Source: Bordetella parapertussis (lineage in GTDB: Bacteria > Pseudomonadota > Gammaproteobacteria > Burkholderiales > SG8-39). From it: 64,000 nt of DNA. A program made the position numbers and the translations under genes. The notes beneath the pieces are model-generated. The model was given only the letters and a program-made list of their open reading frames with translations, was not told where the DNA came from and did not search any database. Positions 2,791 through 23,643 of this stretch are shown piece by piece (position 1 is the stretch's first letter; each line of letters opens with the position of its first letter). The DNA is taken from the NCBI GenBank assembly GCA_945892985.1, contig CAMDDU010000001.1, positions 75,960-139,959 of the forward strand, in the 5' to 3' direction.

Positions 2791-3492
2791 TTACAGTGCG
2801 AGGTAGGTGGCGCGCACCTCCTCGTTGGCGTTGAGTTCGGCAATAGTGCCGGAAAAACGAATGCGGCCTTTTTCTATGATGTAGGCGCGGTCGGACACCT
2901 CAGTGGCGAAATGCAGGTTTTGCTCCGACAGCAGCACCGACACGCCTTCACGCTTGAGTTCGCCTATGGCGGCGGCCATCTGGTCGACGATCACCGGCGC
3001 AAGCCCCTCAGAGGGTTCGTCCAGCAGTATGCACAGCGGGTTGCCCATCAAGGTGCGCGCAATGGTCAGCATTTGCTGCTCCCCCCCCGACATGCGGCCG
3101 CCGGGACGGTCTTTCATTTCACCGAGATTGGGAAACAGGCGGAACAGCTTTTGCGCGGTCCACTCGGGCACACCGGCACGCTTGGGCTGGCGGCCGACCT
3201 CGAGGTTCTCCATCACCGTGAGGTCGGTGAAAATGCGCCGGTCCTCGGGCACATAGCCCAGGCCCGTCTTGGCGATCTGGAAGGGCGCGAGGCCACCTAT
3301 CGATTGGCCCATGAAGCTGACCGTGCCGGAACGCGCCGGTGCCAGCCCCATGATGGATTTCATCGTCGTCGATTTGCCCGCGCCATTGCGCCCGAGCAAC
3401 ACCACCACTTCGCCGCGCCCGACTTCAAGTCCGACGTCGGACAGGATGTGCGCCTGGCCGTAATAGGTATTGAGTCCGGCGGCCTTGAGCAT
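2791..3492 (-). CDS. Branched-chain-amino-acid-type ABC transporter ATP-binding protein (LivF-like)
   Basis: 233 aa with Walker A GRNGAGKST, signature SGGEQQML and Walker B ILLDEPSEGL. The start shares one nt with the LivG-like stop (TGATG). Confidence 0.9.
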   Translation of the reverse strand: MLKAAGLNTYYGQAHILSDVGLEVGRGEVVVLLGRNGAGKSTTMKSIMGLAPARSGTVSFMGQSIGGLAPFQIAKTGLGYVPEDRRIFTDLTVMENLEVGRQPKRAGVPEWTAQKLFRLFPNLGEMKDRPGGRMSGGEQQMLTIARTLMGNPLCILLDEPSEGLAPVIVDQMAAAIGELKREGVSVLLSEQNLHFATEVSDRAYIIEKGRIRFSGTIAELNANEEVRATYLAL

Positions 3493-4283
3493 CAGTGCCT
3501 CGACCCCAGATAGACCTGCTGCACCTGGGCATTGCCGCGCACCTCGGCCGGGGTGCCGGCGGCGATCAGGCGGCCGCGATTGAGGACGATCAGGCGGTCG
3601 GCGTGGGCGAACACCACATCCATATCGTGTTCGGTAAATAGTACGGCAATACCGCGCTCGCGCACGATTTCCGCGGTCAGGGCCATCAGCGCAATGCGCT
3701 CCTGCGGTGCCATGCCGGCGGTCGGTTCATCCATTAATAGCAGGCGCGGCTCATTGGCCAGCGCCACGGCGAGTTCAACCCGCTTGAGATCGCCGTAGGC
3801 AAGAATGGAACAGGGACGCTCGGCCTGCTCGAGCATACCGACGCGCGACAGCAGCTTGTCTGCTGCGTCGCGATACATCTCTGCCGCCCGTTTCCAGAAA
3901 TTGGCCAGGCGCCGGTGATACGACAACAAGGCCATTTGCACGTTCTCGCGCACCGTCATCGACGGGAAGGTCGCGGTGATCTGGAAGGTGCGGCCCACGC
4001 CCATGCGCCAGACTTCGCGCGGTTTTTTTCCCACCACCTCGACACCGTCGATTTTCACGCTGCCCGAGTCCGGTGCGAGCTGGCCGTTGAGCATGTTGAA
4101 GCAAGTGGTCTTGCCGGCACCGTTAGGGCCGATCAGAGCCAGCAGCGTGCCCGGCTCGACGCTGAAACTCACCCCCTGCACCGCCTGCACGCCACCAAAG
4201 GACTTTTTCAAGTCCTGCACGGCCAGAACGTTCAGGCGTTCTCCTTGTGGTGCGCTCAGGCGTTCTCCTTGTGGCGCGCTCAC
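3492..4283 (-). CDS. Branched-chain-amino-acid-type ABC transporter ATP-binding protein (LivG-like)
   Basis: Walker A GPNGAGKTT, Walker B LLLMDEPTAGM, and LKKSFGG near the N-terminus. I chose the GTG start at 4283..4281, which makes a GTGA overlap with the permease stop. The 370-aa track ORF (to 4604) runs upstream inside the permease gene and is not credible. The exact start is uncertain because of the 24-bp duplication. Confidence 0.85.
   Translation of the reverse strand: MSAPQGERLSAPQGERLNVLAVQDLKKSFGGVQAVQGVSFSVEPGTLLALIGPNGAGKTTCFNMLNGQLAPDSGSVKIDGVEVVGKKPREVWRMGVGRTFQITATFPSMTVRENVQMALLSYHRRLANFWKRAAEMYRDAADKLLSRVGMLEQAERPCSILAYGDLKRVELAVALANEPRLLLMDEPTAGMAPQERIALMALTAEIVRERGIAVLFTEHDMDVVFAHADRLIVLNRGRLIAAGTPAEVRGNAQVQQVYLGSRH
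4232..4279. repeat. Tandem 24-bp direct duplication (one mismatch) at the permease/LivG-like junction
   Basis: tcaggcgttctccttgtggTgcgc followed by tcaggcgttctccttgtggCgcgc, read directly. It encodes SAPQGERL twice in the LivG-like frame. Each unit carries AAGGAG and TGA on the coding strand. Confidence 0.9.
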
Positions 4284-6157
4284 GTGTCCTCCCGGCGAGT
4301 AAAACGCGAGCGGATGAAGCCGACGATGCCTTGCGGGAAGGCCAGCACCAGCACGATGATGGTCATGCCAAGCAATGCGCGCCAGTAATCGGTGTTGCGC
4401 GCGATGGTGTCCTGCAGCCATGTGAACACCACGGCGCCCACCACCGGTCCGGACAAGGTCTGCACGCCGCCTAGCAATACCATCACCAGGCCGTCGACCG
4501 AGCGCGCAATGCTCATGACATCGGGGGAAATGCTGCCCTTGGAATACGCATACACGGCGCCGGCAAGGCCGCCGAACATGCCGACCACGACAAAGGCGCT
4601 CCACTGCAGGCGCGCGAGATCCATGCCTATGGCGTCGCAGCGCAGTGGCGAATCACGACCGGCGCGCAGCGCATAGCCCCAGGGTGAGAACAGCATGTGC
4701 CTCAACATCCAGATGCCGGCGCCGCACAGCACCAACGCGAGGTAGTAAAACGCCGTCTTGCCCGACAGCCACGCCGCCGGCCAGATACCCACCAGGCCGT
4801 TGGACCCGCCGGTGAATTCGTCCCATTGGAACATCACCGACCAGGCAATCTGCGCGAACGCCAGGGTCAGCATGGCAAGATAGACCCCGGACAGGCGCAC
4901 ACAAAACCAGCCGAATACCAAGGCTCCGACCCCGGCCAGCAAAGGCGCGGCGAGCAGCGAAACTTCCATCGGCGCGCCGGCGTTCTTGAGCAGCAGCCCG
5001 GCGCCGTAGGCCCCGAGGCCCATGTATGCGGCGTGACCGAAGGAAACCATGCCGGCCGGCCCCATCATGAAATGCAGGCTGGCGGCAAACAAGGCGAACA
5101 CCAGGATGTCTATGCCCAGAATGACCGTGTAGGGCGTCGAAATAAAAGGCAAGGCAAGCAGCAGCGTAAGCAAGGCCCAGGCGCCGCGTTGCAATTTCGG
5201 GCCGGCCGGACGCAGCGGCGGCTCAACATGAGCGCTGGAAACATGCGCCACCGATTGCGGCCGGCCGAGCAGCCCCCAGGGTCGCACGATCAGGACCACG
5301 GCCATGACAAGAAATTCCACCACCAGCGTCAACTTGGACAGCGAAATCACCGTGCCAAACAGCGTCACCTGCCCGATGCCATAGCACAAGGCCTTGATTT
5401 CGGAGATGAGCAAGGCGGCGAGAAACGCCCCCGGAATACTGCCCATGCCACCGATCACCACCACGACAAAGGCATCTGAAATAGTGGTCAGGTCGAGGAA
5501 CAATTGTGCCGGTTCACGCGGAATCTGCAGCGCGCCGCCCAGGCCCGCCAGTAAGGAACCGAGGGCAAACACACCGGTGAACAGCCACTTCTGGTTCACG
5601 CCGAGCGCACCCACCATGTCGCGATCCTGCGTCGCCGCCCGCACCAGCGTGCCCCAGCGCGTGCGATTGAGCAGCAGCCAGAGCAGGCCCAGCACCGCCG
5701 GTCCGATGAATATGAGCAGCAAATCGTACTCGGGCAGCGGCTTGCCCAGCACGTCTATCGAACTGCCCAGGCCGGGGGCGCGCGGCCCGAGCAAGTCCTC
5801 GGCGCCCCAAATCCACAGCGCGGCGTCCTTGATCACCAGCGTCAGCCCAAAGGTGGCCAGTAGCTGGAACAGTTCGGGCGCATGGTAGATGCGCCGCAAC
5901 AACACCATCTCGATCAGCGCGCCAAGCAGGCCCACCGCCAGCGCCGCCAGAGCGATGCCGGTCCAGAAGCCCAGCGCCCCGCCGCCCAGTTTGGCGATCA
6001 GGCTGTAGGCGATATAAATGCCCACCATGTACAAGGACCCGTGGGCGAAATTGACAATGCGCGTAACGCCAAAAATAAGCGACAGGCCGGCCGCCACCAG
6101 GAACAGCGTGGAGGCGCCGGCAAGGCCGTTGAGGAACTGGATGACAAAACTGGACAT
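4280..6157 (-). CDS. Fused LivH-LivM type ABC permease in a single polypeptide
   Basis: 625 aa. The N-terminal half (FLNGLAGASTLFLVAAGLSLIFGVTRIVNFAHGSLYMVG) is LivH-like. The C-terminal half (MMGPAGMVSFGHAAYMGLGAYGAGLL) is LivM-like. It is hydrophobic throughout. Confidence 0.88.
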   Translation of the reverse strand: MSSFVIQFLNGLAGASTLFLVAAGLSLIFGVTRIVNFAHGSLYMVGIYIAYSLIAKLGGGALGFWTGIALAALAVGLLGALIEMVLLRRIYHAPELFQLLATFGLTLVIKDAALWIWGAEDLLGPRAPGLGSSIDVLGKPLPEYDLLLIFIGPAVLGLLWLLLNRTRWGTLVRAATQDRDMVGALGVNQKWLFTGVFALGSLLAGLGGALQIPREPAQLFLDLTTISDAFVVVVIGGMGSIPGAFLAALLISEIKALCYGIGQVTLFGTVISLSKLTLVVEFLVMAVVLIVRPWGLLGRPQSVAHVSSAHVEPPLRPAGPKLQRGAWALLTLLLALPFISTPYTVILGIDILVFALFAASLHFMMGPAGMVSFGHAAYMGLGAYGAGLLLKNAGAPMEVSLLAAPLLAGVGALVFGWFCVRLSGVYLAMLTLAFAQIAWSVMFQWDEFTGGSNGLVGIWPAAWLSGKTAFYYLALVLCGAGIWMLRHMLFSPWGYALRAGRDSPLRCDAIGMDLARLQWSAFVVVGMFGGLAGAVYAYSKGSISPDVMSIARSVDGLVMVLLGGVQTLSGPVVGAVVFTWLQDTIARNTDYWRALLGMTIIVLVLAFPQGIVGFIRSRFTRREDT

Positions 6158-6258
6158 GGATTCAGGGCAAAAAGAAACCGCGGCATAACGCTTCGAACCG
6201 AGCTTGCAAATCTCGCATCCGTGCTATCCGCGTTACGCTGCGGTGGTCTGTGCCTCGG

Positions 6259-7470
6259 TCAGTTTGCCGGCCGCATCTTTTTTACGTCGGCATCGCTGGG
6301 CAGGAATTTCGCGCCGTCCTGGTAGGACCACCCCGGCAACATCACGCCCTTGCCGTCTTTTTTACCGATGCGCCCGACATACGCGCCCATGGTGGACTGG
6401 TTGTCCTGGGTGCGGTAGGTCACCTTGCCAAAGGGCGTATCGACCTGCAGGCCCTGCATCGCGGCAAGCAGTTTCTCGGTGTCGACGCTGCCGGCCTTGC
6501 GCAGGACGGCGGCGGCCGACATCACCGTGGCATAGCCGACTATGGAACCGAGGCGCGGATAATCGTTGAATTTCTTCTGGTAGGCATCGAGAAACTTCTT
6601 GTGCTCGGGCGTCTTGATTTCGGACCACGGGTAACCGGTGACATACCAGCCTTCTGGCGTGTCGTCCTTGAGCGGATCGAGGTACTCTGGTTCGCCGGCC
6701 AGAAGGTTGAACACCGCGGTGTTCTTGAACAGGCCGCGCACGTTGATTTCACGCGCGAACTTGGACAGGTCGCCGCCGAACAACGATGAGAAAATGGCGT
6801 CCGGCTTGGCATCTGCCAGCGCCTGGGCCACCGCACCTGCGTCGATCTTGCCCAGTGTGACGGCCTGCTCGCTGACAAACTCCACGTCCGGCTGGGCTTT
6901 TTTCAACAGTTCCTTAAACGCCGCCGTCGCCGACTGGCCGTATTCATAGTTCGGGTAAATGATCGCCCAGCGCTTTTTCTTCAGCTTGGCCGCCTCGGGG
7001 ATCAGCATCGCCGTCTGCATGTAGGTCGATGCACGCAGGCGGTAGGTGTAGCGGTTGCCGTTTTGCCAGACGATCTTGTCGGTCAGCGGTTCTGCGGCGA
7101 TGAACAGCACTTTTTTCTGCTTGGCAAAATCGGCGACGGCAAGACCGATGTTGGACGGGAAGGTACCGATGAGGAACTGCACGTTCTCGCGTGACAGCAG
7201 TTCTTCGGCGACGCGGACGGCGTCGCCGGTGGTGCCGTTGTCATCGCGGGAAATCACTTCGATCTTGCGTCCGAACACGCCGCCGGCGGCGTTGACCTCA
7301 TCAACAGCAAGATCGATACCACGCTTGTAGGGCTCAAGGAAAGCCGGGAACACCTTGTAGCTGTTGAGTTCACCGATCTTGATCGTACCCTGGGCCGCAA
7401 CCGGCGCGGCGAGGCCGGCCGAAATGGCGAGCATGGCTGCTGTTGCGAGAAACTGCTTGCGTGCTGTCAT
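6259..7470 (-). CDS. Periplasmic substrate-binding protein, type I PBP (LivK/amide-binding family); ligand unknown
   Basis: 403 aa with signal peptide MTARKQFLATAAMLAISAGLAAPVAAQG followed by TIKIGELNS, which is typical of Leu/Ile/Val-binding family proteins. Confidence 0.85.
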   Translation of the reverse strand: MTARKQFLATAAMLAISAGLAAPVAAQGTIKIGELNSYKVFPAFLEPYKRGIDLAVDEVNAAGGVFGRKIEVISRDDNGTTGDAVRVAEELLSRENVQFLIGTFPSNIGLAVADFAKQKKVLFIAAEPLTDKIVWQNGNRYTYRLRASTYMQTAMLIPEAAKLKKKRWAIIYPNYEYGQSATAAFKELLKKAQPDVEFVSEQAVTLGKIDAGAVAQALADAKPDAIFSSLFGGDLSKFAREINVRGLFKNTAVFNLLAGEPEYLDPLKDDTPEGWYVTGYPWSEIKTPEHKKFLDAYQKKFNDYPRLGSIVGYATVMSAAAVLRKAGSVDTEKLLAAMQGLQVDTPFGKVTYRTQDNQSTMGAYVGRIGKKDGKGVMLPGWSYQDGAKFLPSDADVKKMRPAN

Positions 7471-7558: not shown

Positions 7559-8239
7559 TCATTTTTGTCCGTCACCCACCTTGATTTCTGAGACCTTCAT
7601 GCCGCCAACGCGCGCATGTACGCGCGGGCCGGTGGTCATCGCCAGAATATACACAATTTCATCCGGCCGGGGCGCGTCCGGAACACCCATCTCCACCGAG
7701 TCAAAATGGCTGCGCACATAGGCGGCTTCGCGATGGTGGATGGGAATGTCTATGCGCGTGCCGGCAGCCCCGACCTTGCCCGCCGACGGAACAATAGCCT
7801 TCGAGTTGTCGAGCAGTTCCCTCATGCCATAGCCGCCAGGTACATGCCAGAGCGCGCAGTGTTCGGTCTCACCGGCCGTGCCGACAATGGCGCCTTTGCC
7901 ATAGGCCTCGATCTTTTTCGCTCCGCCCAGCGCGGCGATCAGGCGTGCCGCCATATCCAATCCCAGCGGTTTCATCGCTTCCATCAGTGGCATGATGTCG
8001 TCAACATAGCCGCCCGCGTACGGATTCTTGATCACTACGGCAATCGCGCCGCGACGGTGCGGTGTTTTCGCCACCGGTCCGCCTTCGTGGCTGATGTCCT
8101 CGACCATCAGTACTATCTTGCGAATCTCAACTTTGGGTGCCTTGCTTGCCCCGGCGGCCTTGCCGGCCTTGGACACCTTTGACGCCTTGGAGACCTTAAG
8201 GCCCTTGACCGCGTTTTTCGACTTCGCTTTACCCGCCAT
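7559..8239 (-). CDS. Amino acid synthesis family protein (DUF1185 / AA_synth) with an N-terminal Lys/Ala-rich extension of about 36 aa
   Basis: 226 aa. The core (IRKIV..VEDISHEGG, NPYAGGYV, YGKGAIVGTAGETEHCALWH, VRSHFD, DAPRPDEI) matches my memory of PF06684 proteins. A strong SD (GGGAGG) lies 6 nt before ATG 8239, so the tail is likely translated. Confidence 0.8.
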   Translation of the reverse strand: MAGKAKSKNAVKGLKVSKASKVSKAGKAAGASKAPKVEIRKIVLMVEDISHEGGPVAKTPHRRGAIAVVIKNPYAGGYVDDIMPLMEAMKPLGLDMAARLIAALGGAKKIEAYGKGAIVGTAGETEHCALWHVPGGYGMRELLDNSKAIVPSAGKVGAAGTRIDIPIHHREAAYVRSHFDSVEMGVPDAPRPDEIVYILAMTTGPRVHARVGGMKVSEIKVGDGQK

Positions 8240-8260
8240 TGCCGCCTCCCTGATTCATGT

Positions 8261-9124
8261 TCATGAATGTGCCAGTTCCGTCGACGCACCTGCGCGAAGC
8301 GCGCGCTCTGGCGCGAGCATGCGAACTCGTTGCTGCAAAAACAGCGCTGCACCACGCACCAGTCCCGCGGCGATGAGCTCTTTCGCCTTGGCGTGCCCCC
8401 GGTCAAGGGCTTGGTCTATTTTCTCCGGCGACAGCGGCCCCACTGCTATCGTCACCAGGCGCGCTCCAAGATCACTGTCATCCTTGATCGAACACGCCGG
8501 TTTGCGCGCGATGACAGCGTCATCGACATTGACCGCGTTGGCGATAATCGTCGCCGCCGCATCCGCGGCGGCGGCGTTGACGGCAAGCACCGTTACGCTG
8601 TCGGCGATGCCAAGGCTAAAACTCCTGCCCCGCCATCCGCTTGTGGCCACGCCGCCGATGCCGGCATTGGCGCCAACCGAGATGTGGCCGGCCATCTTTT
8701 CGAATCCCTGCGCCACACCAACCTTGAATACCTCTCCCGGCCCGAGATGAAGGGCGATGTCGCCGCCATTATTGACGTAGGCCTTTCTAATGTCGCCGTC
8801 CACCAGGGCATCCAACACCTCATCGGACACAGCCCCGGCCACTGCGGCCATCGGCGTGATGAAGACTTCGCGATAAGGCCAGCAGGCCTTAAGCATGCGG
8901 CGCGCCACGGGGCCGCGCACCGGTTGCGCCTGTGCCACGTCGCGTCGCAGCAGCGACAATTCGCCACTCAAGACTTCCAACAGTCGCTGAAACCGCTGCC
9001 AGGCGCGTTCATACGCAAGCCTTACCGCCTCGGCGTCGCCCTGAGCCTCGATAATCAGATCGATGGGGCCGTGCTGAAAATGGGCACGCGCCCCATCGAG
9101 CATCGCGAATAACGGGCCGCTCAT
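8261..9124 (-). CDS. UPF0280 family protein (ApbE-superfamily-like), function unknown
   Basis: 287 aa. The N-terminal HFQHGPIDLIIEA and the overall size recall UPF0280 proteins. There is an ATGA overlap with the upstream 522-aa gene. Assignment is from memory. Confidence 0.6.
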   Translation of the reverse strand: MSGPLFAMLDGARAHFQHGPIDLIIEAQGDAEAVRLAYERAWQRFQRLLEVLSGELSLLRRDVAQAQPVRGPVARRMLKACWPYREVFITPMAAVAGAVSDEVLDALVDGDIRKAYVNNGGDIALHLGPGEVFKVGVAQGFEKMAGHISVGANAGIGGVATSGWRGRSFSLGIADSVTVLAVNAAAADAAATIIANAVNVDDAVIARKPACSIKDDSDLGARLVTIAVGPLSPEKIDQALDRGHAKAKELIAAGLVRGAALFLQQRVRMLAPERALRAGASTELAHS

Positions 9125-10689
9125 GGCTTCACCGGATCATCCGAGACGACATCGGCCGCGACGAGGGGCCACGGGTTCGCCGCATCCCAATCAATGATCT
9201 TGTGTTGCGCCGTCGACAGTACGGCTTCGAGCGACTGCACCCGGTCCATATGGCCGCCAAGCTGCTCGTAATCGGCAAGCTTCATACTGAACTCCACCGG
9301 CGCGACAATGGCCGGCGTTGGCACCCAGCCAAAGGATTGATCGGGCATTTTCATCACATCGGTCATCACCATGATGCCGCCACCGGGCCAGACGTAAGCC
9401 GGCGCGCCACCGCAGGTGACCTGGACCAGTGCATCTTTGATCGAGAGCGTCAGCGCGATGGGGTTTTCTGTCACACCCGCGCGCAGAGATCCTCCCGCCC
9501 CGCCCATGAAGAGCACCGTACAAAGCGCCGGTTCGCAATTCTCGCCGATGCGATCGACGACTTTCTTGATCGCTGCGGGCATGTCAGCCGGCTGCGGTTG
9601 CAGCTTGTCATCAAGAATGAAGTAGGCCCAATCCTCCCCTGTGGTCGACACAAAGAGGATGCGTTCGCCAGGCCATGCCGTCTTCGGATCGATGGCTTTG
9701 ATGATTTTCAGCGGATCGGTAATATCCGTCCCTCCCCAGCCCGCGCCGGGATTAGCGACCTGGAAGTAGCGGCCGGGCGTGGACTTGCGGCCTATGACCT
9801 TGACGCCGCCATCGCGCATGCCGAGGAACTTGCCCGCCTGATGCTCGGACAGCACGCCGGTGATGTGATCGTCCACCACCACCACCTCGTCAACGTGGCC
9901 CTCCCACTGCTTGGCGAAAATGCCAATAGTGGCGGAGCCGCAGCCGACCCGCATGCGCTGTTCCTCCACACCGTTGATGATCGGCGCCCTACCCGCCTGC
10001 ACGACGATCTTTGCCCCGCCTTCGATGTCCAGTTCAACCGCCAGCTTGTTGCCGAGCGCCATCATCACGTCGCAGGTGACGCGGCCTTCTTTTTTGCTTC
10101 CGCCGGTGAGATGGTGAACGCCACCGATAGACAGCATTTGCGAGCCGTACTCGATGGTCGTGACGTGCCCGACTGCCTCACCGTCAACGCGGATGGTCGC
10201 CTGTTCCGGACCAAGATAGCGGTCGGTGTCGATTTTCAGCTTGAAACTGCAGTAACTGAAAATGCCCTCAGTCACCACCGTGACCATATCGACGCCATGA
10301 TGCTTTGACGAAACAATAAACGGTGCCGGCTTGTAGTCCGGATACGTCGTCCCAGAGCCCACGCCGGACACAAACAGCTCTTGCGCATCGCCGCCGGACT
10401 CGGGGTTTGCGAGTACCACCTCCTGGAAAGGCGCGACAGGATTGCCGTTCCAGCCGGCATCGCTGGAAAAGCGCACCAGGCGGGGGTTTTCAGCCGGTCG
10501 TCGCATCAACACCAGCGGATCGACGCGGGTCAGCACGCCCGCCACGTTGGCATAGCGGTCGCAGGCGCCGGAACGTCCGGCTGTGATATTGCAAAGTACC
10601 GGGCAGGCGTTGCAGACAATTTTTCCTGATCCGGCTTCGACGGCATCAGGAATCAGATCCGGAGCCGGATCCGCATGGGTGGTCGCCAT
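9121..10689 (-). CDS. Fe-S protein of the family annotated as 6-hydroxynicotinate reductase (Hnr-like)
   Basis: 522 aa. It has an N-terminal Cys cluster CNACPVLCNITAGRSGACDRY and Gly-rich stretches (VGCGSATIG, MGGAGGS). GAAGGAG lies upstream of the ATG. The family name is recalled from annotations, not verified. Confidence 0.6.
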   Translation of the reverse strand: MATTHADPAPDLIPDAVEAGSGKIVCNACPVLCNITAGRSGACDRYANVAGVLTRVDPLVLMRRPAENPRLVRFSSDAGWNGNPVAPFQEVVLANPESGGDAQELFVSGVGSGTTYPDYKPAPFIVSSKHHGVDMVTVVTEGIFSYCSFKLKIDTDRYLGPEQATIRVDGEAVGHVTTIEYGSQMLSIGGVHHLTGGSKKEGRVTCDVMMALGNKLAVELDIEGGAKIVVQAGRAPIINGVEEQRMRVGCGSATIGIFAKQWEGHVDEVVVVDDHITGVLSEHQAGKFLGMRDGGVKVIGRKSTPGRYFQVANPGAGWGGTDITDPLKIIKAIDPKTAWPGERILFVSTTGEDWAYFILDDKLQPQPADMPAAIKKVVDRIGENCEPALCTVLFMGGAGGSLRAGVTENPIALTLSIKDALVQVTCGGAPAYVWPGGGIMVMTDVMKMPDQSFGWVPTPAIVAPVEFSMKLADYEQLGGHMDRVQSLEAVLSTAQHKIIDWDAANPWPLVAADVVSDDPVKP

Positions 10690-10836
10690 CAGGGCTCCTT
10701 CGTGCCAAAGCTACCATCGCTGTCATCGCTGCAATAGGACTCACCCGTGTTGCCGGGATTCAAACAGGACATTGGCGAGACCATGCGGCCCCCGGAGTGA
10801 GGCCCACGACGGGCGCCGGCGCAATGGCTACCCGGT

Positions 10837-13605
10837 TCACGCTTTTTGATCCCGCAACAGCTTACGCAGACGGTCGGGCGTTGCTGGCGCGTGGCGGACG
10901 ATCACCCCGGTGGCGTGGCGTATGGCGCCGAATATGGCCGGCGCGGTGGCGATCAGCGCCGGTTCGCCCACGCCTTTGGCGCCGTACGGGCCCAGCGGTT
11001 CGGCATCCTCGACCAGGAACACGTCTATTGGCGGGATGTCGCCGATGGTAGGAATAAGGTAATCGTGCAGGTTGTCGGTCTTGCCGGCCTGGTAATCCTC
11101 CATCAGCGCGAAGCCCAGCCCCTGCGCCACGCCGCCGTGGATTTGGCCTTCCACTTGGGTCAGGTTGAGTGCCCGGCCGACATCGTGGGCGGCGCCTATG
11201 CGCAACACCTTTACCGTGCCCAGCTCGATATCGACTTCCACCTCGGCCATTTGCGCGGCAAAGGCATAGGTTGCGTAAGGCACGCCCTGCCCGTCCTTGT
11301 CCAGCGCGATGGTCGGCGGATTAAACGTGCCCTCGCCGGTGAGGACGTTGCCGCGCTCGTCGCAGGACAGCTCGGACAGATTGATGCGATGTTCACCCGC
11401 GCTGTCGCTGGCGATGAGTTCGCCATGTTCCAAGCGAAGTTTGGCGTCGGCTTTGGCCTCCACCAGCGCGAGCATGCGCGCGCGCAACTGCTCGCCGGCA
11501 AGGCGTGATGCGCTGCCCGAAACAAAGGCCTGGCGCGAGGCCGAGGTCTTGCCCGCGTCTGCGGTAAGGTCGGTGTCGCCCATGACAAAATCAATGTCTG
11601 ACATGCGCAGACCCAGCGCGTCGGCCAGCACCTGCAGCAGCGTGGTGTTGGAACCCTGGCCAATGTCGACCGCGCCGTTGTAAAACATGATGCGGCCCTT
11701 GCGCGTCAGGCCGGCGCGAAGTGTCGACGGATTGGCCATGCCGGTATTGCCGCAGCCATACCACATGCAGGCGACACCAACGCCGCGGCGCACTTTGCCG
11801 GCCTTGCCCGCCAGATTGAACGCTTCGCATTCGGCCTGCGCCTTGAGCCAGCGCGGCTTGAGCGCTTTGAGGCATTGGTCCAGGCCGGCGCTGGCCTTGA
11901 GCACCTGGCCGGTGGCCGTGGCCTGGCCGGCGCGAAGGGCATTGATGAGCCGGAACTCCAGCCTGTCGATGCCGGTCTTTTCTGCCAGGTCGTCGAGCAG
12001 GGTTTCATGCGCGATGGTCGATTGCGGCACGCCAAAACCGCGAAACGCCCCGGCGATGGCGTTGTTGGTATAGACGGCGCGCGTCGCTGCCCTGAAGTGC
12101 GGAACGAAATACGGGCCGGAGGCGTGAATCGGCACGCGATTGGCGACGGTAGTGCCCCAGGAGGCATACGCGCCGGTGTTGAAGTCGCCCTCAAAATCGG
12201 CGGCGAGCAGCCGCCCTTTTGCGTCACAGGCAAAACGCACCTGCATGGCGGCCGGATGACGTTTGGTCGTCGAGACCATGGTCTCGGGCCGGGAATACAC
12301 CCCGCGCACCGGACGCTTGAGCTTCCACGCCGCCACCGCCAGCATCGGCTGGATGGCAATGTCGAGCTTGCCGCCGAAGCCGCCGCCCACCGCCGAGGGG
12401 ATGATGTGTACCTGCGTTGCCTGCAGTTTCAGGATGCGCGCGACTTCATCGCGGTCCATATAAGGCGTCTGGGTGCAGGCGAATATGCGTATGCGCTCCA
12501 CGCCCTTCTCGGTGATGCACTCGGCATAACCGGCCTCGGGCTCGATATAGCCGTGTTCCACATGACTGGTGGTGAACCGCCCTTCGGCGACAAAAGCCGC
12601 GGCGGCCAGCGCCTTGGCGGCGTCTCCCTTTACCACGCGACCGTGTATCAGCACGTTGTCGGGATTATTGGCGTGCAAGGGCTCGCGCGTGTCGGCCAGC
12701 GCCTGCTCCGATTCGAGCAGTGGCACTTGTACCTGCCAGGTGACGGGCACCTCCTCGTCGCGAACGCGCAGCAGGGTTTCGTAATCGCCGACCAACGCAC
12801 ACAGCGCTTCGCCGCGAAACCTGACCCGCATATCGCCGAAGACCGGCTGGTCTTTCACATCCGGGAAGGTGCCAAAGCTGTTTTCCGCCACGTCACGCGC
12901 GGTGACAATATCCACCAGGCCCGGGTATTTGGCCAACAGCGGCTTGAAATCGCCAAAGGAAAATGTCGCCCGCGCGTGCGGCGAACGCACCGCGCGCAGC
13001 CACAGCGAACCTGCTGGCGCCTTGTCCGCGCCGTACAGTTCGGCGCCGGTCAATTTGGCCATGCCATCGGTCTTGGGCGCGCGGCTGCCGACCGCCTCGC
13101 CCGCCGCCGGCTCATCCACAGCGAGATCGCCCATGGCCACCGCCAGCACCGCTTCGATGATCTTGCGATAGCCGGTGCAGCGGCACAGCACGCCACCCAG
13201 CGCATCCTGCACCGCCTGCTCGTCCGGGTTGGCGTTGCGTGCCAGCAGGTCGGTTGCGGCCATCAGCATGCCCGGCGTGCAAATGCCGCATTGCGCCGCG
13301 CCATGCTTGTGAAAAGCCTGCTGCAGGGCATTGAGCTTGCCGTCGGCCCCGGCAAGGCCTTCCACAGTGGTGACCGAGCGCCCGGCGCACTGGCCCAGGC
13401 CGACGATGCAGGAACACACCTGCTGCCCGTCCAGCAGTACGGTGCAGGCGCCGCAGTCGCCGGCGTGGCAGCCGATTTTGGTTCCGGTAAGGCCCAACTC
13501 GTCACGCAATACGTCGGACAGGCGACTTGCCGGATGCGCCTGCGCTGTGACCGGTTTGCCGTTGACTCGCAGTTCGGTGGACATGTTTTGCGCCGGCTTG
13601 TTCAT
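10837..13605 (-). CDS. Xanthine dehydrogenase/aldehyde oxidase family hydroxylase: N-terminal 2x[2Fe-2S] (CoxS-like) domain fused to the molybdopterin-binding (CoxL-like) subunit
   Basis: 922 aa from ATG 13605, which makes an ATGA overlap with the FAD-subunit stop. Motifs CHAGDCGACTV and CGICTPG...CRCTGY mark the two 2Fe-2S clusters. A long MoCo domain follows (GGGFGGK, GQG motifs). The track ORF extension to 14196 lies inside the FAD gene and I rejected it. Confidence 0.88.
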   Translation of the reverse strand: MNKPAQNMSTELRVNGKPVTAQAHPASRLSDVLRDELGLTGTKIGCHAGDCGACTVLLDGQQVCSCIVGLGQCAGRSVTTVEGLAGADGKLNALQQAFHKHGAAQCGICTPGMLMAATDLLARNANPDEQAVQDALGGVLCRCTGYRKIIEAVLAVAMGDLAVDEPAAGEAVGSRAPKTDGMAKLTGAELYGADKAPAGSLWLRAVRSPHARATFSFGDFKPLLAKYPGLVDIVTARDVAENSFGTFPDVKDQPVFGDMRVRFRGEALCALVGDYETLLRVRDEEVPVTWQVQVPLLESEQALADTREPLHANNPDNVLIHGRVVKGDAAKALAAAAFVAEGRFTTSHVEHGYIEPEAGYAECITEKGVERIRIFACTQTPYMDRDEVARILKLQATQVHIIPSAVGGGFGGKLDIAIQPMLAVAAWKLKRPVRGVYSRPETMVSTTKRHPAAMQVRFACDAKGRLLAADFEGDFNTGAYASWGTTVANRVPIHASGPYFVPHFRAATRAVYTNNAIAGAFRGFGVPQSTIAHETLLDDLAEKTGIDRLEFRLINALRAGQATATGQVLKASAGLDQCLKALKPRWLKAQAECEAFNLAGKAGKVRRGVGVACMWYGCGNTGMANPSTLRAGLTRKGRIMFYNGAVDIGQGSNTTLLQVLADALGLRMSDIDFVMGDTDLTADAGKTSASRQAFVSGSASRLAGEQLRARMLALVEAKADAKLRLEHGELIASDSAGEHRINLSELSCDERGNVLTGEGTFNPPTIALDKDGQGVPYATYAFAAQMAEVEVDIELGTVKVLRIGAAHDVGRALNLTQVEGQIHGGVAQGLGFALMEDYQAGKTDNLHDYLIPTIGDIPPIDVFLVEDAEPLGPYGAKGVGEPALIATAPAIFGAIRHATGVIVRHAPATPDRLRKLLRDQKA

Positions 13606-14444
13606 GCCGCGATCCTCGCCAGCGCGCGCTTGAGCAGGGTCTGCACCACATCCAGGCGGTATTCGGCCGTACCGCGTACATCGGCAATCGGGCTGAGCGG
13701 CTGCAAATCGGCTGCCGTGACCAGATCGGCCAAGGATGGTGTGAGGCGTTTGCCGGTGAGTTTTTGCTCCAGCCCCGGCAGGCGTTGCGCCACCGCGGAA
13801 CAGGCGCCCACGGCGATGCCGCAACGCGTGATGAGACCGTTCGCATCGACGGCGATGACAGTGGACACCATGGCAATGGATATCACCAGGTATTTGCGCG
13901 AGCCGAGCTTGAAAAAATCGGCACGCGTTCCGGCCGGCCACTTGGGCACGCGCAGACCGGTCACCAGTTCGTCCGGCTTGCGCGCTGTCTTGCGATTGGC
14001 GAGCAAGAACGCCGCCAGCGGCAGGCTGCGCAGGCCTTGCGGGCCGGCCAGTTGCACGTCGGCATTGAGCGCCAGCAGGGCCGGGACGCCGTCGGCCGCA
14101 GGCGAGGCGTTGCAGATATTGCCGGCAAGCGTGCCGGTATTCTGTATTTGCACACCGCCGACCTCGCGCGCCGCCAGTTTCAGGCCGGCAAAGCACTCGG
14201 GCAAGGCCGCCTGAATGAGTTCGCTCCAGGTCACCAGCGCACCAATGTGCCAGTAGTCTGCGTCCGCCACCTCGCGAATTCCGCGCAGGTCGTCAATGCG
14301 GCTGATATCAAGCACATCCTCTTCTATCAAGCGCCCCACCCGCGCCGGATAGAAGTCGGTGCCACCGGCAAGCACCACATAGGGCTTGGACGACAAAGCG
14401 GAAAAAGCTTCGGTCAGACGGGTCGGGCGCAGGTATTGGCTCAT
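13602..14444 (-). CDS. FAD-binding subunit of the molybdenum hydroxylase (CoxM/XdhB-like)
   Basis: 280 aa. VLAGGTDFYP and TLAGNICNASPAADG are classic FAD-binding molybdopterin-dehydrogenase motifs. Confidence 0.88.
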   Translation of the reverse strand: MSQYLRPTRLTEAFSALSSKPYVVLAGGTDFYPARVGRLIEEDVLDISRIDDLRGIREVADADYWHIGALVTWSELIQAALPECFAGLKLAAREVGGVQIQNTGTLAGNICNASPAADGVPALLALNADVQLAGPQGLRSLPLAAFLLANRKTARKPDELVTGLRVPKWPAGTRADFFKLGSRKYLVISIAMVSTVIAVDANGLITRCGIAVGACSAVAQRLPGLEQKLTGKRLTPSLADLVTAADLQPLSPIADVRGTAEYRLDVVQTLLKRALARIAA

Positions 14445-17832: not shown

Positions 17833-17852
17833 ATAACACGGAGAAAGACATC

Positions 17853-18593: not shown

Positions 18594-18721
18594 GGCCCCC
18601 TTGCGGACGCCAAACCGGGGTTGGGGCAAGGCTGGAAGCCGCCGTCGAATAACCCCACGAAATATACGGCCTAATTTAATTTTTTAACCGTTTGGTTAAA
18701 ACCGGCGCCTATGGCAGGCGC

Positions 18722-18750
18722 TGGAAAGAGGCAGTTTATTCGGCTATAAT
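18722..18750 (+). promoter_or_regulatory. Candidate sigma70 promoter of fdxA (TGGAAA-N17-TATAAT)
   Basis: A perfect TATAAT at 18745..18750 with a weak -35 (TGGAAA) 17 nt upstream, in an AT-rich intergenic region 70 nt before the fdxA ATG. Confidence 0.4.
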
Positions 18751-18772: not shown

Positions 18773-18798
18773 CGCAGTTAAGCAAACACTTAACTGCG
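18773..18798 (+). promoter_or_regulatory. Perfect 10-nt-arm inverted repeat in the fdxA leader (CGCAGTTAAG-caaaca-CTTAACTGCG)
   Basis: Read directly from the sequence. It lies between the putative -10 box and the fdxA start codon (18820). It could be an operator or an RNA hairpin. Confidence 0.5.
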
Positions 18799-18819: not shown

Positions 18820-19143
18820 ATGACCCACGTTGTTACCGAAAGCTGCATCAAGTGCAAGCACACCGACTGCGTAGATGTCTGCCCAGTTGATTGTTTCAAG
18901 GAAGGCCCGAACTTCCTCGTCATTGATCCTGACGAGTGCATCGACTGTGCCGTCTGTATTCCCGAATGTCCCGTGAACGCCATTTTTGCCGAAGAAGATC
19001 TGCCGGCCGGCCAGGAAAAATTCACCGCACTGAACGCTGATCTGGCCAAGATCTGGCCGCTGATTACCGACACCAAGCCCGCGCTACCGGACGCTGAAAA
19101 ATGGGCCGATGTGACGGACAAGCTGCAATACCTCGAAAAGTAA
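18820..19143 (+). CDS. fdxA: 7Fe ferredoxin ([3Fe-4S][4Fe-4S], Azotobacter FdI type)
   Basis: 107 aa. [26 protein letters not shown]...[16 protein letters not shown] is the canonical FdxA pattern. Confidence 0.93.
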
Positions 19144-19239
19144 CACCGCCCCGGTCCCGGACAACCGGGAAGTACCCGGTAGCGCAATTTTTCTAGACTC
19201 CCGCCTGTTGCGCGGCTGCCCCGCAGCGGGAGTGACAGG

Positions 19240-22200
19240 ATGCCATCCATGCCCACACTCTCGCTGGCCCACGGCCTCGCCTTTTCCGATTTGTATTGCC
19301 GCGACGGTCTGTCGCGCATCGATGCCGCGTTTCTCTCCTGGCTTGGCGACGCGGATCCCGAACTCGTCGCCCGCCTATCCGCCGCGCGCGCAGAGCCCGA
19401 TGCCCTCGCCAAAAAGGACGAGTCGGCCCTGATTCTCGCTGCAGGGCCGCACCTTGATGACTTTGTCGCAGACTTGTTCGGCATAGCCGGCGAAGTAAGG
19501 GCGCTTTCCGCACGGCATCATGTTCTAGCGCCCATCTACACAATCAAACGCCAGTTCGTGCAACGCAAAGCGCTTGCGAAATACAAAGCCGAGGCCGCTG
19601 CAGGATTTGACGGCGCAGCACTGGAGGCGACGCTGACAAACCGCTTTGGCCACGCGTTCAGCGAGCTGGCCTACGCCGAGGCAATCGAAACCTGGCTAAA
19701 GGACGAGCCCACCAACGAAGAGTCCATAGATCTCGCCCTGCGTTACGCCGCTTGGGCCTTGCTCACCCCGGCCGGTCGCGAGCGCAACCAGGCTGGTGTG
19801 CTGTTCAAGACGGCAGCCAAGCTCGATCCGCAAAACCTTCTGCCGCACGCGCAAAAGCATGAAACGAACGGGTTGACCACGTTCACCATCAAGCCCGAAC
19901 ACATCCGCCGGCGCGAAGGATTCGCACTCACCGACAAGGGCAGCGATCTCACCGGCGCCTTATCGGAGGCCAACTATTGCATCTGGTGCCACACTCAGGG
20001 CAAGGATTCCTGCTCCACCGGTCTGAAAGAAAAGGCCGGGCCCGACGGCAAAGCTGCATTCAAGAAAAATTCCTTCGGCACCACGCTCGCGGGCTGTCCG
20101 CTGGAGGAAAAGATTTCCGAATTCCACACGCTCAAGGTGGCCGGACACGCGTTGTCGGCGCTGGCCGTCATCACCGTCGACAACCCGCTAGCCGCAGCGA
20201 CGGGGCACCGCATCTGCAACGACTGCATGAAATCCTGCATCTACCAGAAACAGGAACCTGTCAATATTCCCCAGGTCGAAACACGCACGCTCAAGGATGT
20301 GCTGGAACTGCCCTGGGGCTTTGAGATCTATTCGCTGCTGACGCGCTGGAACCCGCTCAATATCCGCCGCCCGTTGCCGCGCGCCAGCACCGGCTACCGC
20401 GTACTGGTCGCAGGCATGGGGCCGGCCGGCTTCGCGCTCTCGCACCACCTTATGAACGACGGCCACGCGGTGGTGGGCATAGACGGCCTCAAGATAGAAC
20501 CGCTGCCGCCGCATTTGTCGGGCGTCAACGCAGACGGAAGCCGCGCCCGCTTCGATCCGGTGCATGACGTCAACATACTCTACGAAGCCCTGGGCGAAAG
20601 AACCATGGCCGGCTTCGGTGGCGTGGCGGAATACGGCATTACAGTGCGCTGGGACAAGAATTTTCTCAAGGTCATCCGCCTGCTGCTCGAAAGACGCGCC
20701 GAGTTTGCCTTGTTTGGCGGCGTGCGCTTCGGCGGCACGCTCACTTCGGATGACGCCTTTGGCATGGGCTTCGACCACATCGCGCTGGCTATGGGCGCCG
20801 GCAAGCCGACAGTACTGGATATCCCCAACGGCCTTGCCCGCGGCGTGCGCACCGCCTCAGACTTCCTGATGGCACTGCAACTGACCGGTGCGGCCAAGCC
20901 CGACTCCATCGCCAACATGCAAGTGCGCCTGCCCGTTGTCGTCATCGGTGGCGGCCTTACCGCCATCGACACCGCAACCGAATCACTCGCCTATTACCCC
21001 ATACAGACGGAAAAATTCCTGCAGCGCTATGAAGTGCTGGCCAGGGAAAAGGGCGAAGACGCAGTGCGCGCATCCTGGAGCCCGGAAGAGCGCGAGATCG
21101 CCGAGGAATTCCTCGCCCACGCCCGTGCCATCCGCAAGGAGCGCGCCACCGCTGCGACCCAAAATCGCGAGCCTCACATCATTGAATTGCTCCGCTCCTG
21201 GGGCGGCGCAACCATAGCCTACCGCCGCCGCCTGCTCGACAGCCCCTCTTACACGCTCAATCACGAAGAGGTGGAAAAAGCGCTGGAAGAAGGCATCAGC
21301 TTCGCCGAGGCCCTTACGCCGCTGTCGGTCGACGTAGATGATTATGCCGCGGCGCGCGGCATCAACTTCACCCGCCAGGCCATGGGCGAGGATGGCAAGT
21401 GGGTCAGCACAGGTGAGCTTCACCTGCCGGCCAGTACGATTTTTGTTGCCGCAGGCACCTCGCCCAACACCGTGCTGGCGCGCGAGCACCCGCAACACTT
21501 TGGCACTGACGGCAAGTACTTCCAGGCCTGCGACGAAAACGGCCTGCCGCTCAAGCCGCAGTTCTCCATATCCAAACCGGAAAAAATAGACGTGCTGCTG
21601 TCGCGCGTGGCGGACGGCCGCTTTGTTTCCTTTTTCGGTGACCTGCATCCCTCGTACTTCGGCAACGTCGTCAAAGCCATGGGCAGTGCAAAACAAGGCT
21701 ACCCGGTGGTGACCCATGTGCTGGGCAAGCACCCCCCGGCCAGCAAAGCGGACAACGCCGCTTTCTTTGCCGCGCTGGCGGGCGACCTGCTCGCAACGGT
21801 CGAGCGCGTCGAGCGCCTCACGCCAACGATTGTTGAAATCGTGCTCAAGGCGCCGCTCGCAGCGCGAAAATTCCGTCCCGGCCAGTTTTACCGCCTGCAG
21901 AACTTTGAGACCCTGTCCCCGGTAAGCCACGGTACGCGGCTGCAAATGGAAGGACTTGCGCTCACTGGCGCATGGACCGATCCTGCCAAGGGTCTGGTGT
22001 CGACCATCGTTCTGGAAATGGGAGGATCCGCCGATTTGTGCGCCATGTTAAAGCCAGGCGAACCAGTCGTATTGATGGGCCCGACCGGAACACCAACCCA
22101 TATCGCACCCAATGAAACGGTGATCCTCGTCGGCGGCGGCCTTGGCAATGCCGTGCTGTTCTCCATCGGACAGGCTTTCCGCACCCAGGGATCGAAGGTA

Positions 22201-22767
22201 CTTTATTTTGCCGGCTACAAGAAAGTTATAGACCGCTACAAGGTCAGGGACATCGAGGCTGCAGCAGACGTCATTGTCTGGTGTTGCGACGAACAGCCCG
22301 GGTTCACGCCGGGGCGCCCCCAAGACCGGTCTTTTGTCGGCAACATCGTCCAGGCCATGGATGCGTATGCCTCCGGACGACTTGGAAGCCCCGAGATCGC
22401 CATGACCGAGGCCGACCGCCTCATCGCCATCGGCTCCGATCGCATGATGTCAGCCGTTGCCCGCGCCCGGCACGAGGTGTTGAAGCCGCACCTCAAGCCG
22501 CATCATTTCGCCATCGGTTCAATCAACTCGCCAATGCAGTGCATGATGAAAGAAATCTGCGCGCAATGCCTGCAACCGCAGCGCGATCCGCATACCGGCA
22601 AGATCAGCTATGTCTTCTCCTGCTTCAACCAGGATCAGGACCTCGACTGCGTCGACTTTGCCGGATTATCCGAACGCTTGACGCAGAATTCAATGCAGGA
22701 AAAGCTGACCAAGCAATGGCTCGCCTACTGCATGCCTGATTTGAAAAAGCAGCGCAGCCTGGTCTGA
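19240..22767 (+). CDS. Large multidomain oxidoreductase: unknown N-terminal domain (about 230 aa), Cys-rich Fe-S segment, GltD/NfnB-like FAD/NAD(P) domain, and C-terminal PyrK/NfnA-like ferredoxin-reductase module
   Basis: 1175 aa. Cys motifs are CIWCHTQGKDSC and CNDCMKSC. The dinucleotide fold is RVLVAGMGPAGFALSHHL. YGITVRWDK and MGAGKPTVLDIPNG are GltD-like. The C-terminal part (FRPGQFYRLQNFE, VILVGGGLGNAVLFSIG, final CMMKEICAQC) is PyrK-like. Confidence 0.8.
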   Translation: MPSMPTLSLAHGLAFSDLYCRDGLSRIDAAFLSWLGDADPELVARLSAARAEPDALAKKDESALILAAGPHLDDFVADLFGIAGEVRALSARHHVLAPIYTIKRQFVQRKALAKYKAEAAAGFDGAALEATLTNRFGHAFSELAYAEAIETWLKDEPTNEESIDLALRYAAWALLTPAGRERNQAGVLFKTAAKLDPQNLLPHAQKHETNGLTTFTIKPEHIRRREGFALTDKGSDLTGALSEANYCIWCHTQGKDSCSTGLKEKAGPDGKAAFKKNSFGTTLAGCPLEEKISEFHTLKVAGHALSALAVITVDNPLAAATGHRICNDCMKSCIYQKQEPVNIPQVETRTLKDVLELPWGFEIYSLLTRWNPLNIRRPLPRASTGYRVLVAGMGPAGFALSHHLMNDGHAVVGIDGLKIEPLPPHLSGVNADGSRARFDPVHDVNILYEALGERTMAGFGGVAEYGITVRWDKNFLKVIRLLLERRAEFALFGGVRFGGTLTSDDAFGMGFDHIALAMGAGKPTVLDIPNGLARGVRTASDFLMALQLTGAAKPDSIANMQVRLPVVVIGGGLTAIDTATESLAYYPIQTEKFLQRYEVLAREKGEDAVRASWSPEEREIAEEFLAHARAIRKERATAATQNREPHIIELLRSWGGATIAYRRRLLDSPSYTLNHEEVEKALEEGISFAEALTPLSVDVDDYAAARGINFTRQAMGEDGKWVSTGELHLPASTIFVAAGTSPNTVLAREHPQHFGTDGKYFQACDENGLPLKPQFSISKPEKIDVLLSRVADGRFVSFFGDLHPSYFGNVVKAMGSAKQGYPVVTHVLGKHPPASKADNAAFFAALAGDLLATVERVERLTPTIVEIVLKAPLAARKFRPGQFYRLQNFETLSPVSHGTRLQMEGLALTGAWTDPAKGLVSTIVLEMGGSADLCAMLKPGEPVVLMGPTGTPTHIAPNETVILVGGGLGNAVLFSIGQAFRTQGSKVLYFAGYKKVIDRYKVRDIEAAADVIVWCCDEQPGFTPGRPQDRSFVGNIVQAMDAYASGRLGSPEIAMTEADRLIAIGSDRMMSAVARARHEVLKPHLKPHHFAIGSINSPMQCMMKEICAQCLQPQRDPHTGKISYVFSCFNQDQDLDCVDFAGLSERLTQNSMQEKLTKQWLAYCMPDLKKQRSLV

Positions 22768-22968: not shown

Positions 22969-23643
22969 TCAGTCCTTGTGCTTGCGCAGATGATTGAGCA
23001 CGACCTCTGTGATATGGGCAAGGTGATCCGCTTGCGCGACCGGCGACATCAGATCGCGTCCCAGCACGGTCGAAAGGGTGTAGCGATTGGACAGATAAAA
23101 GTAGCCCAGAGCCGCGATCATGATATAGATCTGGCTTGGATCCAGGCCGCTCCGAAAGACCCCGCATTCCTGTCCGCGCACCAGCAGCGCCCGCAGCATG
23201 CCCAGCGCAGGAGATACCAGGTCGGTGAGGTGCTTTGACTTTTTCAGGAACTTCGCCTGATGCTGGTTCTCGGTGTTGAGCAGCCGGATGAATTCAGGAT
23301 GCGCGACGTAATAACTCCAGGTGAACTCCACCAGACGCGATATCCCGGGTATCGGCTCAAGGTGATCGAGCCTTAATTTGCTCTCCGCGCGCCAGAACCC
23401 CAGATAAGCCTCCTCGAGCACGGCAACGAACAGCTTGTCCTTGCTGTCAAAATAATAGTAGAGCATGCGCTCGTTGCTACGCGCCCTGGCCGCGATCTGA
23501 TCGACGCGCGCCCCGCCCAGCCCATTGCGCGCGAACTCGGTGGTGGCGGCGGCAAGGATGCGTGCCTTGGTGCGGTGCGGATCGCGCTTCACCTTGTCTG
23601 CTGCCACGGTCTTGCATGGAGCGGGTTGAGCCATTTTTTGCAA
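22969..23643 (-). CDS. TetR/AcrR family transcriptional regulator
   Basis: 224 aa. The HTH region is TKARILAAATTEFARNGLGGARVDQIAARARSNERMLYYYFDSKDKLF. Confidence 0.9.
   Translation of the reverse strand: MQKMAQPAPCKTVAADKVKRDPHRTKARILAAATTEFARNGLGGARVDQIAARARSNERMLYYYFDSKDKLFVAVLEEAYLGFWRAESKLRLDHLEPIPGISRLVEFTWSYYVAHPEFIRLLNTENQHQAKFLKKSKHLTDLVSPALGMLRALLVRGQECGVFRSGLDPSQIYIMIAALGYFYLSNRYTLSTVLGRDLMSPVAQADHLAHITEVVLNHLRKHKD

Follow-up and report, generated by a model that had tools for sequence, protein, structure and literature searches.

The 64,000-nucleotide stretch of Bordetella parapertussis DNA analysed here (contig CAMDDU010000001.1, positions 75,960 to 139,959; referred to below as the window) carries fdxA, which encodes a 7Fe-type ferredoxin, and directly downstream of it a gene for a 1175-residue protein, here given the shorthand BIG. 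Judged by its sequence, this protein is one of the single-chain, Nfn-like iron-sulfur flavoproteins that make up the RP005/PRK06567 family. From its architecture, the conservation of its cofactor ligands, the distribution of its family and its gene neighbourhoods we infer its substrates, the direction of electron flow, bifurcation and a client: we propose that BIG is an NAD(P)H-linked, possibly bifurcating, general-purpose ferredoxin reductase that in this genome serves a 6-hydroxynicotinate reductase (Hnr), and our confidence in this proposal is evenly divided.

Domain architecture of the 1175-residue protein

An initial annotation, made from the letters of the window alone, had reported fdxA followed by a long open reading frame (ORF), and both genes were recovered where it had put them, on the plus strand at 18820..19143 and 19240..22767, without an internal stop. 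The 107-residue FdxA scores 161.4 bits against NCBIfam NF045490 (FdxA_Protbact; curated cut-off 135), matching profile positions 1-103 of 104, and a domain scan identifies its tail as DUF3470.

The N-terminal part of BIG (residues 1-190; 19240..19809, plus strand, as are the other three parts) is an all-helical domain with a pLDDT of 94.2 in the AlphaFold model. Precomputed annotation assigns it to Pfam 38.1 family PF27156 (RP005_N), both for this exact protein and for all 120 listed homologues, and a protein atlas gives the same name to the N-domain of the nearest clusters; the assignment is taken from these two sources. The initial annotation had set this region apart as one that it could not place: it is indeed a distinct domain, over about 190 residues, but it can be placed. 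Searches of the PDB with two models of the domain gave no convincing relative (best Z score 6.0, over 63 residues), and Foldseek returned nothing. Conservation is lower in this domain than anywhere else in the protein (21-58% identity, compared with 49-81% for the remainder), and it contains no conserved cysteine or histidine. A profile search recovered 2046 clusters at 50% identity, in all of which it occupies the N-terminal position.

The second part (residues ~229-364; 19924..20331) is a double-[4Fe-4S] domain of the type found in NfnB, GltD and dihydropyrimidine dehydrogenase (DPD), recognised by structural matches, by Pfam Fer4_20 (residues 284-348) and by its invariant cysteines. The structural matches are to NfnB (4ylf_B, Z score 8.9, root-mean-square deviation 2.7 over 103 residues), GltD (6s6s_G, Z score 7.3) and DPD (1gt8_A, Z score 6.5). 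Seven cysteines are invariant in 34 homologues, namely C247, C250 and C258 in a C-x2-C-x7-C motif, C286, which is followed by a proline, and C326, C329 and C333 in a C-x2-C-x3-C motif; an eighth ligand was not identified in the domain beside these seven. The alignments A1 and A2 comprise 32 rows, one of them from genome G141 (locus L017); here and below G, L and C numbers are our handles for genomes, loci and contigs, G000 being the genome of the window.

The third part is a GltD/NfnB-like FAD and NAD(P)H module (residues ~386-840; 20395..21759) with an insertion of about 80 residues. It matches Pfam Pyr_redox_2 at residues 386-581 and, in sequence searches of the PDB, the large subunit of Pyrococcus furiosus NfnI (5jca_L, 1e-11; 5vj7_A, 1.6e-13), and its GxGPAG and GGGLT motifs are conserved. 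The fourth part (residues ~850-1175; 21787..22767) is an NfnA/PyrK-like FAD/NAD(H)/[2Fe-2S] module, with NCBIfam matches at residues 853-1019 and, in the PDB, sequence similarity to the small subunit of NfnI (5jca_S, 7e-12), Thermotoga maritima NfnA (4ylf_A, 1.6e-10) and PyrK (1ep3_B, 1.7e-4). Its [2Fe-2S] motif, C1101-x5-C1107-x2-C1110...C1128, has four cysteines that are likewise invariant. The two cysteine motifs, the GltD-like domain and the PyrK-like C-terminus of the initial annotation are thus all borne out, with the closest solved relatives of the two halves being NfnB and NfnA, ahead of GltD and PyrK.

BIG shares with NfnAB the seven-cysteine cluster domain, both FAD/dinucleotide modules and the [2Fe-2S] site, although sequence identity is only about 20-25%. 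It differs in being one chain with the B part before the A part, whereas NfnAB is a heterodimer of two subunits, in possessing the helical N-domain and the insertion of about 80 residues, and in that the hosts of its family are mostly aerobic Proteobacteria. Like the fused Nfn of Clostridium autoethanogenum (PRK12778, 'Pattern B') it has NfnA-like and NfnB-like parts in a single polypeptide, but there the order is the opposite, A then B, and RP005_N is lacking; the match to PRK12778 is 121 bits, far from the cut-off of 1103. GltD and the N-terminal half of DPD share the fold of the double-[4Fe-4S] domain and the FAD/NADPH module. Scores against the GltD models are 55.1 bits for TIGR01317 (cut-off 447.7) and 45.5 bits for TIGR01318 (cut-off 483), and against the PyrK model PRK00054 at most 29.9 bits (cut-off 314). 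Neither gltB nor pyrD was found beside BIG, and a GltB or DPD catalytic partner is neither fused nor adjacent. Finally, the Fpr-type ferredoxin-NADP+ reductases that work with FdxA (Azotobacter/Pseudomonas type) have the same presumed job, from NADPH to a 7Fe ferredoxin, but an architecture that is unrelated save for the FNR-like C-terminal module.

Family membership and distribution

The domain order of BIG is that of the RP005/PRK06567 family: the N-domain, an Fe-S domain, an FAD/NAD(P)H domain and an FNR-like module with [2Fe-2S]. Against the NF005128 profile the protein scores 786.2 bits, over residues 10-714 and beyond; since the equivalog cut-off of 1072 is not reached, BIG belongs to the wider family and is not the curated Rickettsiales-type equivalog. 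The name PRK06567 is applied to proteins of Ehrlichia and other Rickettsiales, and BIG is about 140 residues longer than the PRK06567 model, which has 1031 positions and derives from Rickettsiales-type proteins. The same succession of N-domain (presumed in the actinobacterial example), two [4Fe-4S] clusters, FAD/NAD(P)H and C-terminal FAD/NAD/[2Fe-2S] describes the 'Pattern C' fused Nfn homologues of Actinobacteria, Alphaproteobacteria and Gammaproteobacteria, in which the a-FAD/NAD/[2Fe-2S] part is C-terminal and which are about 200 residues longer and uncharacterised (Liang et al., 2019; PMC6405883).

The fusion is therefore not new, being already in Pfam, in NCBIfam and in the 2019 review, and the window protein is a further member of an uncharacterised family. 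The initial annotation was correct that the two parts are normally separate polypeptides, but it overstated the rarity of the fusion; NCBIfam alone catalogues the single-chain forms PRK06567, PRK12778, PRK12779 and PRK12775.

A word-based search recovered at least 8000 homologues. Of 300 genomes sampled from the class, 70 encode the enzyme, as do 69 of 201 from the order, about a third, and its hosts include genomes of 1.2-2 Mb; none of 14 well-known control genomes has it. Three genomes (G039, G326 and G296) are counted only in these class and order tallies and in the CysJ tally given below, and none of our conclusions hangs on them or on G141. Split forms also occur. In one (G042:C7:30844-34306) a GltD-like part of 668 residues and a PyrK-like part of 517 residues are adjacent genes, and in another (G342:C38:23668-27249) the RP005_N domain is its own ORF, either of which may be a frameshift or a true split; G326 is a second case of a split N-domain.

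Small iron-sulfur carriers next to BIG

We surveyed 196 loci, which reduce to 144 lineages. Immediately upstream of BIG and in the same orientation, fdxA is found in 19 of the 144. On a maximum-likelihood tree, 12 of the first 13 such cases mapped fall in one clade with support of 0.98, which includes the window, and separate cases outside this main clade occur in G351 and G420. The only genes that the fdxA-BIG loci have in common are fdxA and BIG themselves. Three genomes of family f292 have no FdxA besides the one encoded next to BIG. Several relatives have two or three FdxA-like genes, and the genome of the window carries a second paralogue elsewhere (C7:42504-42824, locus L081) that is 66% identical to the window FdxA. 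It also has a gene for an Fpr-type ferredoxin-NADP reductase (NF008178, 290 bits, full length); a simple replacement of Fpr by BIG is therefore rejected for this genome.

Other lineages carry a different iron-sulfur protein, on the downstream side of BIG. In 15 of them, an arrangement seen in many Burkholderiales, an RnfB-like protein (PF04060 and Fer4_21; for example L043:675-1544, minus strand, and L050:5048-6397, plus strand) and endonuclease III (nth) are encoded directly downstream of BIG on the same strand, a layout that recalls rsx-nth of Escherichia coli minus the membrane Rnf subunits. The rnfB-like gene of the window's genome is on a different contig (C15). At Nitrosomonas/Nitrosospira-type loci (L148:560-5812, L128:2946-4061 and L166:10771-12747) BIG is preceded by cysI-cysH-(cysD)-cysN and followed by the pntAB transhydrogenase genes, the whole row on one strand. 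The window's genome itself encodes a CysI-like siroheme sulfite/nitrite reductase (C4:129380-130681; loci L172 and L173), and the CysJ model gave only two flavodoxin-like matches of about 170 residues.

A small Fe-S carrier next to BIG is thus a recurring but not universal theme. This qualifies the suggestion of the initial annotation that the enzyme is dedicated to FdxA: the upstream position of fdxA recurs, but mostly in one clade, and members of the family lacking an adjacent ferredoxin gene, as well as those in genomes of 1.2-2 Mb, speak for a broader use.

The nicotinate cluster

Upstream of fdxA, on the minus strand, lies the front end of a reductive nicotinate cluster (7559..14444). It encodes the FAD subunit of a molybdenum (Mo) hydroxylase (13602-14444; 280 residues, FAD_binding_5 and CO_deh_flav_C), a fused 2Fe2S/Mo hydroxylase (about 10837-13600; MoHyd in the gene orders below) and Hnr (9121-10689), whose close homologues bear the name 6-hydroxynicotinate reductase at NCBI and JGI; the other two products are ApbE-like (8261-9124) and a DUF1185 protein (7559-8239). 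Beyond it, also on the minus strand, is a Liv-type ABC transporter (2791..7470), with a binding protein at 6259-7470 (Peripla_BP_6), a permease at 4280-6157 and ATPases at 2791-4604. The 1119-residue 'Mo hydroxylase' ORF at 10837-14196 on the minus strand is over-extended at its 5' end; the start of the 2Fe2S/Mo subunit is probably near 13600, and the FAD subunit lies in another frame. The idea that BIG acts as acceptor for an FAD-less Mo hydroxylase was rejected on account of this separate subunit. Since the Mo hydroxylase has an FAD subunit of its own, Hnr would be the step that needs an external low-potential donor. The 6-hydroxynicotinate reductase of Eubacterium barkeri reportedly uses reduced ferredoxin. 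A reductive nicotinate route is also found in the aerobe Azorhizobium (PMC3511419).

Neighbourhoods that combine hnr and BIG take several forms. The layout of the window recurs in two genomes of the same genus (G501 and G500). In G514, L092, L096 and L130 the order is MoHyd<-|->fdxA-BIG, with a TetR homologue in L096. In G420, a member of a different GTDB family that lies far off on the BIG tree, it is Hnr<-|TetR->...fdxA-BIG. Co-directional BIG->MoHyd->Hnr-...-HyuA loci lacking fdxA occur in G511 and L111, and in G503 hnr is 10.7 kb downstream of BIG. The hnr homologue of G503 (C41:24287-25729) contains one in-frame TGA, which may reflect a pseudogene, a sequencing error or selenocysteine; the hnr match of G420 likewise has one TGA. 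An operon for an OYE, a CoA ligase and a nitroreductase (14579-18593, plus strand) separates the hydroxylase genes from fdxA only in the window's genus (G501 and G500), and since G514, L092, L096 and L130 lack it in a layout that otherwise corresponds, it looks like a later insertion.

Across the order sample, hnr is present in 15 of 201 genomes, 13 of which also have BIG; at the level of genera, BIG is found in seven of the nine that are hnr-positive. The frequency of hnr is 6/8 in genomes with the fdxA-BIG pair, 7/61 in those with BIG only and 2/132 in those lacking BIG. Orthologues of the transporter (binding protein 67-76% identical) are the commonest conserved neighbour of BIG elsewhere, in 14 of the 144 lineages, divergent or co-directional.

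Promoter, palindromes and spacer

A sigma-70-like promoter, TGGAAA-17-TATAAT (18722..18750, plus strand; 10 of 12 positions in a consensus scan), precedes fdxA. As this site lies in a 226-bp gap behind the nitroreductase gene, fdxA and BIG may well be transcribed as a unit of their own. The promoter-like site is itself preceded by a perfect palindrome, TTTTAACC-GTTT-GGTTAAAA (18682..18701), which has no other perfect match in the window and is kept with at most one mismatch in the same-genus G501 and G500; the region 5' of fdxA lacks it in the other genera checked. A TetR-type regulator might use this palindrome as its operator, and a gene for a TetR-family (RutR-like) protein, convergent with BIG, is found at 22969..23643 on the minus strand (TIGR03613 RutR, 1e-18, below cut-off). 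TetR homologues also stand beside fdxA and BIG, at differing positions, in G420 (47% identical) and L096 (54%), and no common palindrome was found in either. An operator common to fdxA, the hnr operon and the TetR gene was rejected, as TTAACC-N4-GGTTAA is present only before fdxA.

A second palindrome, AGTTAAG-CAAACA-CTTAACT, lies in the fdxA 5' leader (18776..18795, plus strand). The 14-mer TTAAGnAAACnCTT occurs exactly twice in the 64 kb, at 18778-18791 within this palindrome and at 14473-14486 in the divergent control region between the hydroxylase and OYE genes; both sites are retained in G501, although as a pattern chosen post hoc this is weak evidence.

The 96-nucleotide spacer between fdxA and BIG (19144..19239, plus strand) contains two hairpins, the first after the fdxA stop codon and before a U-run, the second sequestering the GGGAG ribosome-binding site. 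Its predicted RNA fold of -42.6 kcal/mol is not clearly stabler than chance (z = -1.9 relative to shuffled sequences). These hairpins may set the ratio of ferredoxin to reductase.

Proposed function

The mechanism that we propose draws on the cofactor-binding motifs and on homology to NfnAB. In it, fdxA and BIG would constitute a two-gene ferredoxin/ferredoxin-oxidoreductase unit with its own promoter. NADPH would reduce the FAD of the GltD/NfnB-like module, from which electrons would travel via the two [4Fe-4S] clusters and leave the enzyme on a small Fe-S carrier, here FdxA, and the C-terminal NfnA-like FAD/[2Fe-2S] module would provide a second pyridine-nucleotide site. With the cofactor set of NfnAB, the enzyme could join two pyridine-nucleotide sites to an external ferredoxin, and by virtue of the second site the reduction of ferredoxin could be driven in the manner of Nfn, in the reverse of its anaerobic direction: 2 NADPH + NAD+ + 2 Fd(ox) -> 2 NADP+ + NADH + H+ + 2 Fd(red), where Fd is ferredoxin. 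For an aerobe whose NADPH/NADP+ ratio is high and whose NADH/NAD+ ratio is low, ferredoxin reduction would be the thermodynamically sensible direction. The family-specific helical N-domain, which is predicted to abut the cluster domain and has no conserved cofactor ligand, would most likely be a docking or oligomerisation module. Across the family the enzyme would be a general supplier of reduced Fe-S carriers; in the window's genome and several relatives the pair would have been drawn into the reductive nicotinate cluster, where reduced FdxA would most likely be handed to the ferredoxin-dependent Hnr.

A number of observations weigh against this proposal. The Fpr-type reductase and the second FdxA in the same genome mean that neither partner of the pair is unique there, and most members of the family have no adjacent ferredoxin gene. 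The pair occurs in genomes lacking hnr (G447, G351, G513, G509, G504 and G510), hnr occurs in two genera lacking BIG, and in 10 of the 13 genomes of the order sample that have both, hnr and BIG are far apart or on different contigs. The enrichment of hnr overstates the support, because the genomes are related and not independent, and part of the adjacency of hnr and BIG may be synteny inherited together with the ABC transporter and not selection. No operator shared by the hnr operon and fdxA was found beyond the post hoc 14-mer, and our search of the literature on RP005, PRK06567 and FdxA reductases found no functional or biochemical study of any family member. There are also chemical objections. 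The potential of the [4Fe-4S] cluster in a 7Fe ferredoxin is too low (about -650 mV for Azotobacter FdI) for it to be reduced, so that only the [3Fe-4S] cluster would be usable. In NfnA the [2Fe-2S] ligands are an aspartate and three cysteines, whereas the site of BIG has four cysteines, as in PyrK, and for this reason bifurcation cannot be deduced from the sequence.

The initial annotation had gone as far as suggesting that electrons could flow to the neighbouring Hnr. Neighbourhoods with hnr, variously rearranged in two GTDB families, and the enrichment of hnr where the pair is present lend this genuine comparative support; an exclusive relationship does not survive the genomes that have the pair or hnr alone.

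Alternative explanations

The alternative that survives best is that BIG is a housekeeping reductase of ferredoxin or Fe-S carriers with no special tie to nicotinate, and that the position of hnr is inherited synteny, the nicotinate genes having been inserted into, or lost from, an old neighbourhood of BIG and the ABC transporter. The enzyme is indeed common in the class and order samples, its small-genome hosts included, and its Pfam and NCBIfam families are defined by Rickettsiales relatives. In 11 lineages BIG is directly beside an orthologous Liv-type ABC transporter with no hnr nearby, and among these G313, G421 and G465 lack hnr genome-wide; moreover, the arrangements are largely clade-specific. 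We nevertheless think this explanation rather unlikely, since the neighbourhood of hnr and BIG has been kept through at least four gene orders or orientations and recurs in the distant BIG lineage of G420 together with a homologous TetR gene, hnr is strongly enriched where fdxA has joined BIG, and fdxA is also present in five of the six hnr-adjacent lineages.

A further alternative reverses the flow of electrons. BIG could run the way Nfn classically does, or could simply be a ferredoxin:NAD(P)+ oxidoreductase, oxidising FdxA or RnfB-like carriers to make NADPH and so disposing of low-potential electrons. Its cofactor set is that of NfnAB, which makes NADPH in vivo (PMC6405883), and the Nitrosomonadaceae-type loci, in which BIG is placed between cysI-cysH-cysN and pntAB, provide a context of NADPH economy. 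In the loci examined, however, BIG has beside it no obvious gene for a catabolic enzyme that reduces ferredoxin, for instance a 2-oxoacid:ferredoxin oxidoreductase. Next to BIG in the window, the Mo hydroxylase comes with an FAD subunit of its own and Hnr reportedly consumes reduced ferredoxin, and we consider this direction distinctly improbable.

Least probable of all, and very doubtful in our view, is that BIG is the reductase of some other system with FdxA as an occasional neighbour, either a soluble pathway of Rsx/Rnf type that leads by way of the RnfB-like protein to SoxR or endonuclease III, as the rnfB-like and nth genes downstream of BIG would allow, or a CysJ substitute, as cysI-cysH-cysN upstream of BIG in 7-9 loci and a CysI-like gene but no CysJ in the window's genome would allow, because each of these contexts is limited to one or two clades, the rnfB-like gene of the window's genome is on another contig, and the presence of the enzyme is independent of CysJ (10 of 36 CysJ-positive genomes, where 8.4 are expected among the 300, hence no anticorrelation), which led us to reject CysJ substitution as a general role.

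Implications

The proposal that BIG reduces ferredoxin for Hnr bears on a wider question. The reduction of low-potential ferredoxin in aerobic bacteria is poorly understood, yet 6-hydroxynicotinate reductase depends on it, as radical-SAM or siroheme enzymes probably do too. The RP005 family, which is widespread, is kept in very small genomes, has the full Nfn cofactor set and has never been characterised, is a strong candidate for this role. What the locus adds is a reductase that has both a candidate client, Hnr, and a ferredoxin partner as neighbours, and it would be a good biochemical entry point, with a testable client and an easy growth phenotype on nicotinate.

A bolder form of the proposal, which we put forward as a speculation and think rather unlikely, is that an aerobic betaproteobacterium runs a single-chain Nfn in reverse, bifurcating the electrons of NADPH so that one is driven uphill onto FdxA, at its [3Fe-4S] cluster, while the other falls downhill to NAD+. 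If this were true, low-potential reductant would be made in this way for 6-hydroxynicotinate reductase and other ferredoxin-dependent enzymes, and the RP005 family would be the long-missing route to low-potential ferredoxin in oxygen-respiring Proteobacteria, obligate intracellular ones included.

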